In this document: piece by piece, positions 21,950 through 22,854 of the stretch
Layout: each line of letters begins with the position of its first letter
Position numbering within the stretch: the stretch's first letter is position 1
Origin: Amphiscolops sp. MND2022
Lineage: Eukaryota
Length of the DNA stretch: 64,000 nucleotides
Direction: 5' to 3'
Assembly: GCA_964187785.1 (NCBI GenBank)
Contig: OZ076409.1
Coordinates: 1,984,001-2,048,000, forward strand
The notes under the pieces: model-generated
What the model saw: the letters and a program-made list of their open reading frames with translations, nothing else
Database searches by the model: none
What the model was told of the DNA's origin: nothing
Translations under genes and position numbers: made by a program

Positions 21950-22542
21950 TTATAATAAGTCTTCCCTTTCAAAGGGGACAACGGTTGCCCCATTAGGAGG
22001 TGGCTTAGGGTGTCCAGCGCACAAACACACCATGTACCCTCCTGCTGAGGCTAGCTCTTGGAGGACCTCGAAGAATTGGCTCCTGTCCAACCGTCGAGCT
22101 ATATTTGCCCGGTCTTGAGGAGAAGTCTTCTCCCAACCTTGCACTATCGCCTTAAGTTTAAAAATCCATACATCTTTGGCTCCGTGCGATAGCTTCTTTC
22201 TCCACTAAAACAAACTATCACGATTGGAAATCACAATTACGAAACACGTACAATCAACTTTCAGAACGACAACTTTGTTCCCTTCTTTTATCCGTGACAA
22301 AAACAATACAAAAAAACCTCCCCTATAGTGCTTAGAAGCCACCCTACTCAATAACTTACGTGTTCTCCTAACGCCAACCTCACTGCTCTCCGAAATGGTT
22401 CTGGGCGCCGCAGAACTTCACTTTCCGGTGTTGTTCCCGCCATCATCGGAAGCTCCAGGTCAGTTACCAACGCTCGCATGTCAGCAAAAAGATCTGGCGC
22501 CAAATACGCGTCATTTGCGGTAGAAAAGGGCAAGCGGTTCAT
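21950..22542 (-). CDS. Antisense spliced accessory gene of element A (145 aa, unknown function)
   Basis: Coding exon 22542-22360 (MNRLPF...GEH), intron GTAAGT...TTTTAG 22359-22205, exon 22204-21950 (WRKKLSH...EDLL*) joined in frame. Upstream non-coding intron 22787-22559. Confidence 0.7.
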
Positions 22543-22854
22543 CGTGCAAAGAAAAAGTCTAAATAACAACAACCAACTTGCAATCTCAAAGTTCATTTTC
22601 ACCACCCCCCTTATACCATTTAAAAATTTCCCCCTCTCACACTTTGCTGCTCAACACCGTTTTTCATTTTTCTCCCAATTTTTACCACTATATGCTTACA
22701 ACTTTTCTATTCCTTTTTCGGCGGTCGAGCGTGTCATATACACGATAACAAAAATTCAAGAAAAACGAAAACCGAAAACGAACTTACTTGTGAATTTGAA
22801 GAGATCAGACTAACATCCGAGAGCGCACTCAACACAAGTCAAACTTAAGCTACC

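Follow-up and report, generated by a model that had tools for sequence, protein, structure and literature searches.

A predicted antisense gene split by introns and conserved among copies of an animal Ty3/Gypsy retrotransposon

Introduction

Additional open reading frames in antisense orientation (aORFs) are known from plant Ty3/Gypsy LTR retrotransposons, where those of the aORF-3R type lie between pol and the 3′ LTR, as in gene23 of maize Grande, in rice RIRE2 and in Retand (PMC7264820). The available text of PMC11963269 also covers the antisense aORFs of plants. Gene23 of Grande has its own internal promoter. What such additional antisense genes do in LTR retrotransposons is an acknowledged open question, and it has been urged that antisense transcripts and spliced ones be sought (PMC7264820).

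Here we analyse a 64,000-nucleotide stretch of contig OZ076409.1 of Amphiscolops sp. MND2022 (the window), in which a Ty3/Gypsy element carries a predicted minus-strand gene in the 5-kb gap between pol and an env-like gene. Like the plant aORF-3R genes, this gene is antisense to gag-pol, lies 3′ of pol, is present in many copies, is located near tandem-repeat arrays and encodes a protein without an assigned function. Unlike them, it belongs to an animal host, precedes an env-like gene and has predicted introns, and its protein has no TRP28 or SMC domain in Pfam. A specific test for the TRP28 type of Retand found Transposase_28 (PF04195) in neither exon and in none of the relatives at E-values up to 0.05 and 10.

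Results

The host retrotransposon and its surroundings

The host is a Ty3/Gypsy LTR element of ~19 kb with LTRs that are 99% alike and a 4-bp target duplication (Table 1). The duplicated TAAC stands at 11397-11400, directly before the 5′ LTR, and a PBS-like TGG... begins at 13790, separated from this LTR by 3 nt. Pfam matches follow the gag-PR-RT-RH-IN order of Ty3/Gypsy (Retrotrans_gag, 4.6e-5; RVT_1, 9e-17; RT_RNaseH_2, 7e-25; rve, 2e-12), the protease match being weak, and the ORF list shows the coding regions of this copy split into several ORFs. A macro-like domain at 16300-16480, between protease and RT, gave an E-value of 0.044, below the cut-off.

The remainder of the 3′ LTR (784 nt, 99.2% identical) is found in inverted orientation at 59846-59063, and TAAC occurs again after it. 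Because the LTRs are ~99% identical and TAAC is present on both sides, the element is a single recent full-length insertion that was later cut by inversion or misassembly of 30225-59846. The breakpoint of this 29.6-kb segment matches to the base in the LTR. The same rearrangement runs through another Gypsy element, a GC-rich one, splitting its RT gene so that its halves lie at 30225-35000 (minus strand) and from 59847 (plus strand).

Table 1. Positions in the window of the retrotransposon features and of the predicted antisense gene
Feature	Position	Strand	Details
5′ LTR	11401..13786	+	TG...CA, 2386 nt, internal 196-nt tandem units
5′ LTR internal signals	TATA 12000, TCATTC 12030, sense donor GTAAGT 12138	+	sequence motifs
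gag, protease, macro-like domain, RT/RNase H, integrase	13829..20794	+	Pfam
T-rich 3′ flank	21800..21949	-	21% G+C
Coding exon 3	21950..22204	-	84 codons + stop; helical part, then GG-x6-AGHP-x-PPP-x-G motif
Predicted intron 2	22205..22359	-	155 nt, GTAAGT...TTTTAG, phase 0; deduced from conservation boundaries
Exon 2	22360..22558	-	16-nt leader, ATG 22542, 61 codons
Predicted intron 1	22559..22787	-	229 nt, GTAAGT...TTTAG, 5′ UTR; less certain
Predicted non-coding exon 1	22788..22813	-	26 nt, Inr-like TTAGTC
Imperfect ~74-nt repeats	22862..23045		upstream of predicted start
59/50-nt tandem array	23931..24488		~10 copies; between antisense gene and divergent sense ORFs
Sense ORF, 154 aa, no known family	24726..25190	+	cluster of 25 members
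env-like gene, Monjiviricetes fusion glycoprotein family	25797..27478	+	Pfam 4e-12, 6e-23; two ORFs in window copy
TRAF/MATH domain ORF	28044..28796	+	Pfam; cluster of 61 members; coiled-coil-like N-terminus by eye
3′ LTR, first 1406 nt	28820..30224	+	99.0% identical to 5′ LTR

The 196-nt LTR units occupy 12470-13180 and 29889-30224, the 3′ LTR having one unit fewer, and each unit contains minus-strand GTAAGT donors (12735, 12750, 12931, 12946, 13141, 30153 and 30168). These donors are possible sites of antisense splicing out of or into the element. A further minus-strand GTAAGT at 24516 adjoins the 59/50-nt array, and together they are a candidate for an alternative first exon or a divergent internal promoter. 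On the sense strand, the LTR has promoter geometry, with the TATA and TCATTC motifs followed by a GTAAGT donor that is preceded by CAG. Since TTTAG acceptors also occur shortly upstream of the ATGs at 24726, 27515 and 28044, this arrangement suggests that the downstream ORFs are expressed from spliced sense mRNAs.

Other sense ORFs without a known family lie at 23272-23829 (119 and 65 aa, in pieces) and 27515-28006 (163 aa); the 154-aa and 163-aa ORFs recur in other copies of the element. The TRAF/MATH ORF stops 24 nt short of the 3′ LTR, with no obvious long polypurine tract there. Elsewhere in the window we noted a BEL/Pao element at 42487-51504 (Peptidase_A17 in Pfam; 389-nt LTRs, 99% identical; cluster of 214 members), which belongs to a metazoan group and so points to an animal host, five or six imperfect repeats of ~177-190 nt at 4572-5579 that resemble a repeated minus-strand coding unit, and a Tc1/mariner-type transposase fragment at 8147-8692 (HTH_Tnp_Tc3_2).

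An antisense gene model between pol and the env-like gene

The sequence-only reading had proposed a three-exon gene on the minus strand of the pol-env gap. All of the motifs that it named are present: TTAGTC starting at 22813 (A at 22811), GTAAGT at 22787 and 22359, TTTAG ending at 22559, TTTTAG ending at 22205, and ATG at 22542. The two coding exons also join in frame as it described, giving 145 codons with TAA at 21952-21950. From the ATG to 22360 there are 183 nt, or 61 codons in phase 0, and the frame resumes at 22204; neighbouring frame-shifting AG positions yield just 74-81 codons. The ORF track lists the pieces as the separate stop-to-stop ORFs 22348-22650 and 21950-22204, which was likewise part of the proposal.

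Base composition agrees with the exon/intron model, the G+C content being 52% and 49% in the exons, 37% and 36% in the C-poor introns, and lowest in the 3′ flank. No AATAAA was found on this side of the gene; the variants present are TTTAAA (21879), TATAAA (21822) and ATTAAA (21746). The window holds no second copy of either exon, and Rfam gave no match in 20700-26000.

Neither strand of the whole window contains another ATG-exon-GTRAGT-intron-TTYAG-exon model of ≥120 codons. When the 5-kb gap was shuffled, such a model arose in 10 of 1000 global shuffles and 22 of 1000 shuffles in 250-nt blocks, and it reached ≥145 codons in 2 and 7 of 1000, respectively. Because the original search had covered 64 kb and two strands, this rarity alone is indecisive; the comparison with other copies of the element decides.

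Conservation in other copies follows the predicted exon boundaries

The relatives are protein calls made blind to introns, with no DNA behind them, and they read through splice sites, so that exon boundaries are visible in them. Splice motifs were deduced from residues (Ser being AGY or TCN). As members of a single family, the copies do not count as independent observations, and the visible set is limited to those with an open frame.

The exon-2 search matched 8 of 14 candidate clusters, with 22 members including that of the window and therefore 21 relatives. They form three or four subfamilies, and the relatives are 72-93% identical across the 61 residues. The core is 60 residues long in 16 of the 21 and 59 in the other five, which share a one-codon in-frame deletion. 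In every relative the conserved block stops at His61. The dipeptide that follows is Val-Ser in 18 relatives, and the other three have Ile-Ser, Val-Gly or Val-Cys, each seen once. Val (GTN) is thus the first residue past the donor in 20/21, a pattern that fits GTRAGT; the single Ile counts against it. Beyond this point the read-through tails are 2-34 residues long, and subfamilies differ at 12-14 of 14 tail positions. In the closest copy, whose two exon proteins were paired because their source contigs are equal in size (32346), 7 of 134 exon residues are changed, whereas the read-through of intron 2 has 7 changes in 34 residues and, in addition, a frame shift (Fisher p 0.009). No intron-free joined form appeared among 8 matches for candidates of 55-175 residues, as would be expected if the model holds, because such introns would never be removed from the genome.

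For exon 3 we found 12 relatives, eight of which end at the same C-terminus as the window protein. The remainder comprise one with a late frame shift, one with an early end, one with a longer acidic tail and one that matches only briefly and in another frame. Two relatives, P0060 (71% identical) and P0064 (32%), read into exon 3 from upstream in the same frame, and in both the homology begins exactly at the first exon-3 residue. The match to P0064 had an E-value of 6e-14 in BLASTP and 4.6e-4 in phmmer among 1.8 billion representatives, and its Phe-Gln directly before the exon-3 start fits a TTYCAG acceptor. P0060 has Trp at the position of the TAG of the window acceptor, which counts against the model; the residue suggests that the acceptor was probably lost in this copy. 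Seven close relatives were called from internal starts, which an in-frame TAG at the acceptor would make necessary.

For 6 of the 12 exon-3 relatives, an exon-2 relative comes from a source contig of equal size. By the same indirect measure, at least 8 of the 21 exon-2 relatives are linked to MATH, env or 154-aa proteins of the element among the 15 proteins listed per cluster. Five of ten matches from the representative search (P0061, P0062, P0065, P0066 and P0067) were dropped as unrelated repeat proteins. Scanning viral contigs at the DNA level produced 42 pattern matches, none of them a relative. In metagenome DNA, 56 matches yielded two loci, both of which we put down to chance similarity on the strand opposite bacterial genes.

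Conservation among relatives breaks at the donor and exon-3 homology starts at the acceptor, so the proposed coding intron stood up to the comparison with other copies. With 21 exon-2 and 12 exon-3 relatives, the exons are an aORF-like coding unit that is conserved in many copies of the family and travels with the element. These data support a conserved antisense gene within the retroelement, interrupted at 22359-22205 by an intron in phase 0, and intron 2 is very likely spliced.

The predicted protein and its possible role

The spliced product would have 145 residues (~16.4 kDa, pI 8.7). It has no transmembrane segment (maximum 19-residue hydropathy, 1.18) and no clear basic nuclear-localisation cluster beyond Arg-Lys-Lys. 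Models of the single exons are helical and of low confidence (pLDDT 63 and 50), and a two-chain prediction of the exon products scored 0.01, which argues neither way. Neither exon is a repeat of the other. The best conserved feature is the proline-rich GG-x6-AGHP-x-PPP-x-G motif.

Family searches named no relative. Pfam gave no match for either exon or the relatives at E-values up to 0.05 and 10, the best E-value in the PDB sequence search was 0.13 with no family named, and Foldseek against BFVD gave 0 matches at E 0.001 for either exon model. A wide VIA search with the low-confidence exon-3 model reached a best Z of 3.5 and named no family, and the ESM Atlas gave no usable match for exon 3 or P0064. 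We found no host-gene relative in Pfam, the PDB or the 1.8 billion representatives. The two Cys are missing from P0064, which led us to reject a zinc-binding role.

The likeliest single role, which we propose tentatively from the parallels of Grande gene23 (PMC7264820) and of retroviral accessory proteins as described in the available text of PMC10186651, would be regulation of the element's own expression. Ranked after it is a real protein that acts on the host, as an adaptor modulating signalling or cell death alongside the TRAF/MATH protein. The same element does encode a MATH domain, the best conserved part of the protein is its proline-rich motif, and the MATH, BIR and BCL2-like domains of planarian Burro have been proposed, in the accessible part of PMC6431247, to affect host apoptosis and ubiquitination. 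A six-helix death fold was considered by eye, on the single-exon models only (pLDDT 50 and 63; best VIA Z, 3.5). However, neither the death fold nor any other family was matched in the sequence searches, and we regard the host-adaptor role as a rather unlikely one.

The predicted first exon and start of transcription

A strong GTAAGT at 22787 is followed by a T-rich, C-poor segment, as expected of intron 1 in the model. Seven relatives extend upstream of exon 2, and all seven keep the Phe-Arg codons that fit the TTTAG of acceptor 1. Ahead of Phe-Arg, 4-8 of 11 codons differ between copies, compared with 6-16 of 60 in the core (p<0.05 in four of six pairs), and 14 of the 21 exon-2 relatives were called from the downstream Met.

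The Inr-like hexamer at the predicted start is one of 20 on the minus strand of the pol-env gap. An RGWYV motif, which we take to be a DPE-like element, stands at +28 and overlaps the donor; 2 of the 20 hexamers have one. No TATA box was found for the predicted antisense start. The ~74-nt repeats upstream are real (period 74, 1.9 copies, 79% matches), and GCCATGTG occurs three times. That they drive the antisense gene, as the sequence-only reading had proposed for 22855-23045, is a conjecture. Alternative minus-strand GTAAGT donors exist farther upstream, at 24516 and in the repeats of the LTR (30153 and 30168).

The gene could have two exons only, with a start at ATG 22596 (79 + 84 codons), in which case intron 1, exon 1 and the Inr would be coincidental. 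Intron 1 holds four ATGs, of which the one at 22596 is in frame and open into exon 2; this upstream Met, with Phe two residues on, is common to the window and all seven extended relatives, and two of the seven have lost the downstream Met. Inr-like hexamers are also frequent in the gap. Against a two-exon gene stand the divergence before Phe-Arg, the calls from the downstream Met and the donor with its T-rich, C-poor continuation, and we consider it improbable. The earlier claim of a first intron and non-coding exon is the weaker part of the model: its acceptor fits Phe-Arg in 7/7, but the upstream ATG is shared as well and the downstream Met is missing in two. Splicing of intron 1 and exon 1 as predicted is reasonably probable, and the balance tips slightly towards an internal promoter for the antisense transcript.

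Tests for selection on the minus-strand frame

As the relatives are protein calls without DNA, selection was analysed by codon-based simulations, not by dN/dS. Codons with two or more base changes were in excess: a pair in subfamily B had 7 of 23, compared with a neutral mean of 1.24 (0 of 4000 simulations), and subfamily A′ had 3 of 15 (p 0.012). The excess had p<0.05 in four of five single comparisons, indicating that a small number of sites takes most of the change. When substitutions were pooled, their conservativeness did not exceed the neutral level in exon 2 (mean BLOSUM −0.55 versus −0.52, p 0.57) or in exon 3 (−0.28 versus −0.55, p 0.25); substitutions in the MATH control were conservative by the same test (p 0.008).

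The neutral-like conservativeness is what a passenger would show, be it part of a host gene picked up by the element or ORFs arisen by chance, copied along and no longer expressed. Shared ancestry of the copies makes similarity alone weak proof, and a model of this kind arises in 1-2% of the 5-kb shuffles. In contrast, similarity drops sharply at the donor, and exons diverge less than introns among copies, including within the same pair. Further arguments against a passenger are the excess of multiply changed codons, the occurrence of indels that keep the frame, the boundary shared by a relative of 32% identity, and the lack of a host-gene relative in the three collections searched. We therefore hold a neutral passenger to be quite unlikely.

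The least probable alternative by far, that the conserved unit is the plus-strand ORF 22478-22813 (111 aa) with the minus-strand frame as its shadow, is largely refuted: in the window this ORF runs through exon 2 without a stop and, sharing its wobble position, could cast a signal in principle, but its ATG is impossible in 10/21 relatives, a stop is forced in 5/21 and either applies in 13/21, exon 3 lies outside it and has a stop at 22116 in its own shadow frame, and the ORF has no Pfam match and its exact protein is absent from the protein collection.

Discussion

We think it likely that the two conserved minus-strand exons are spliced to encode a 145-residue accessory protein. Its transcript more probably starts at an internal promoter near 22811 than in an LTR, and the protein may well work within the cell, regulating its own element by non-enzymatic means. 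The motifs and the joined frame are confirmed as sequence, and from these and the relatives we infer splicing itself.

In this model, an internal promoter would give a short minus-strand RNA that is then spliced and translated. The element would replicate through its plus-strand genomic RNA, in which the antisense introns read backwards and should stay in. Because plus-strand RNA cannot splice reverse introns, every new insertion would inherit the intron-containing antisense gene. The sequence-only reading had reasoned that antisense introns persist in this way, and the principle is indeed stated for globin vectors, in which reverse orientation is used so that introns survive in the genomic RNA (available text of PMC6775231). 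Convergent transcription in vectors can form double-stranded RNA and cut yields, according to the part of PMC13148933 that is available. The predicted antisense transcript stops ~1 kb short of the integrase stop; therefore, any double-stranded RNA formed with the genomic RNA would cover non-coding sequence only.

A broader and more doubtful reading is that this animal Gypsy lineage has independently evolved a complex-retrovirus architecture, with env, TRAF/MATH, a multi-exon antisense gene, an internal promoter and a new protein family, old enough to span members of 32% identity that share the position of the intron, which would regulate expression or latency in trans. Split genes are invisible to ORF-based transposon annotation, and animal elements may therefore hold more accessory genes than have been counted. 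The locus offers exact junctions and a small protein outside known families.

Among animal elements, planarian Burro/GYPSM1 is similar in being a large invertebrate Gypsy element with MATH/TRAF, a mononegavirus-related env, tandem repeats and accessory ORFs, as described in the available text of PMC6431247. Unlike the element studied here, Burro merges most domains in one huge ORF1 and has env before pol, according to the same text. The word antisense has 0 occurrences in the text of that review to which we had access, and the primary description of Burro could still contain such a gene. More generally, we found no spliced antisense protein gene for animal Gypsy elements in a literature set that comprised the available text of sources including PMC5408684, PMC8532177, PMC8220671, PMC12477816 and PMC6431247, with the primary Burro and brtn reports standing outside it.

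The sequence-only reading had likened the gene to HBZ of HTLV-1. The available text of PMC10186651 describes HTLV-1 hbz and the aph genes of HTLV-2/3/4, with which the window gene shares a small accessory protein, antisense orientation, predicted splicing and an env-bearing element. Unlike those genes, which start in the 3′ LTR, the predicted start here is internal and 6 kb away, and HBZ is a bZIP protein (same source), whereas the protein predicted here has neither a bZIP nor likeness in sequence. When this protein was tested for a bZIP, Pfam gave no match, exon 2 had no more than 3 of 5 heptad leucines and exon 3 had 1, and no basic region was present. HBZ is also a nuclear protein that represses transcription from the 5′ LTR. 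A kinship with HBZ, or a close likeness, is thus unsupported. The gene is HBZ-like in logic only, and the env-bearing element parallels deltaretroviruses in having an antisense gene without common ancestry of those genes.

The nearer parallel is a plant or fungal antisense aORF with its own promoter. In fungi, brtn of the Boty-like Gypsy elements of Botrytis and Sclerotinia is likewise an antisense extra gene in a non-plant Ty3/Gypsy element, according to the available part of PMC8365987; its element, unlike ours, is fungal, and the likeness is one of description. Plant and fungal elements, like HTLV-1, were already known to have antisense genes; what is new here, within the literature covered, is the predicted spliced antisense layout in an animal Gypsy element.
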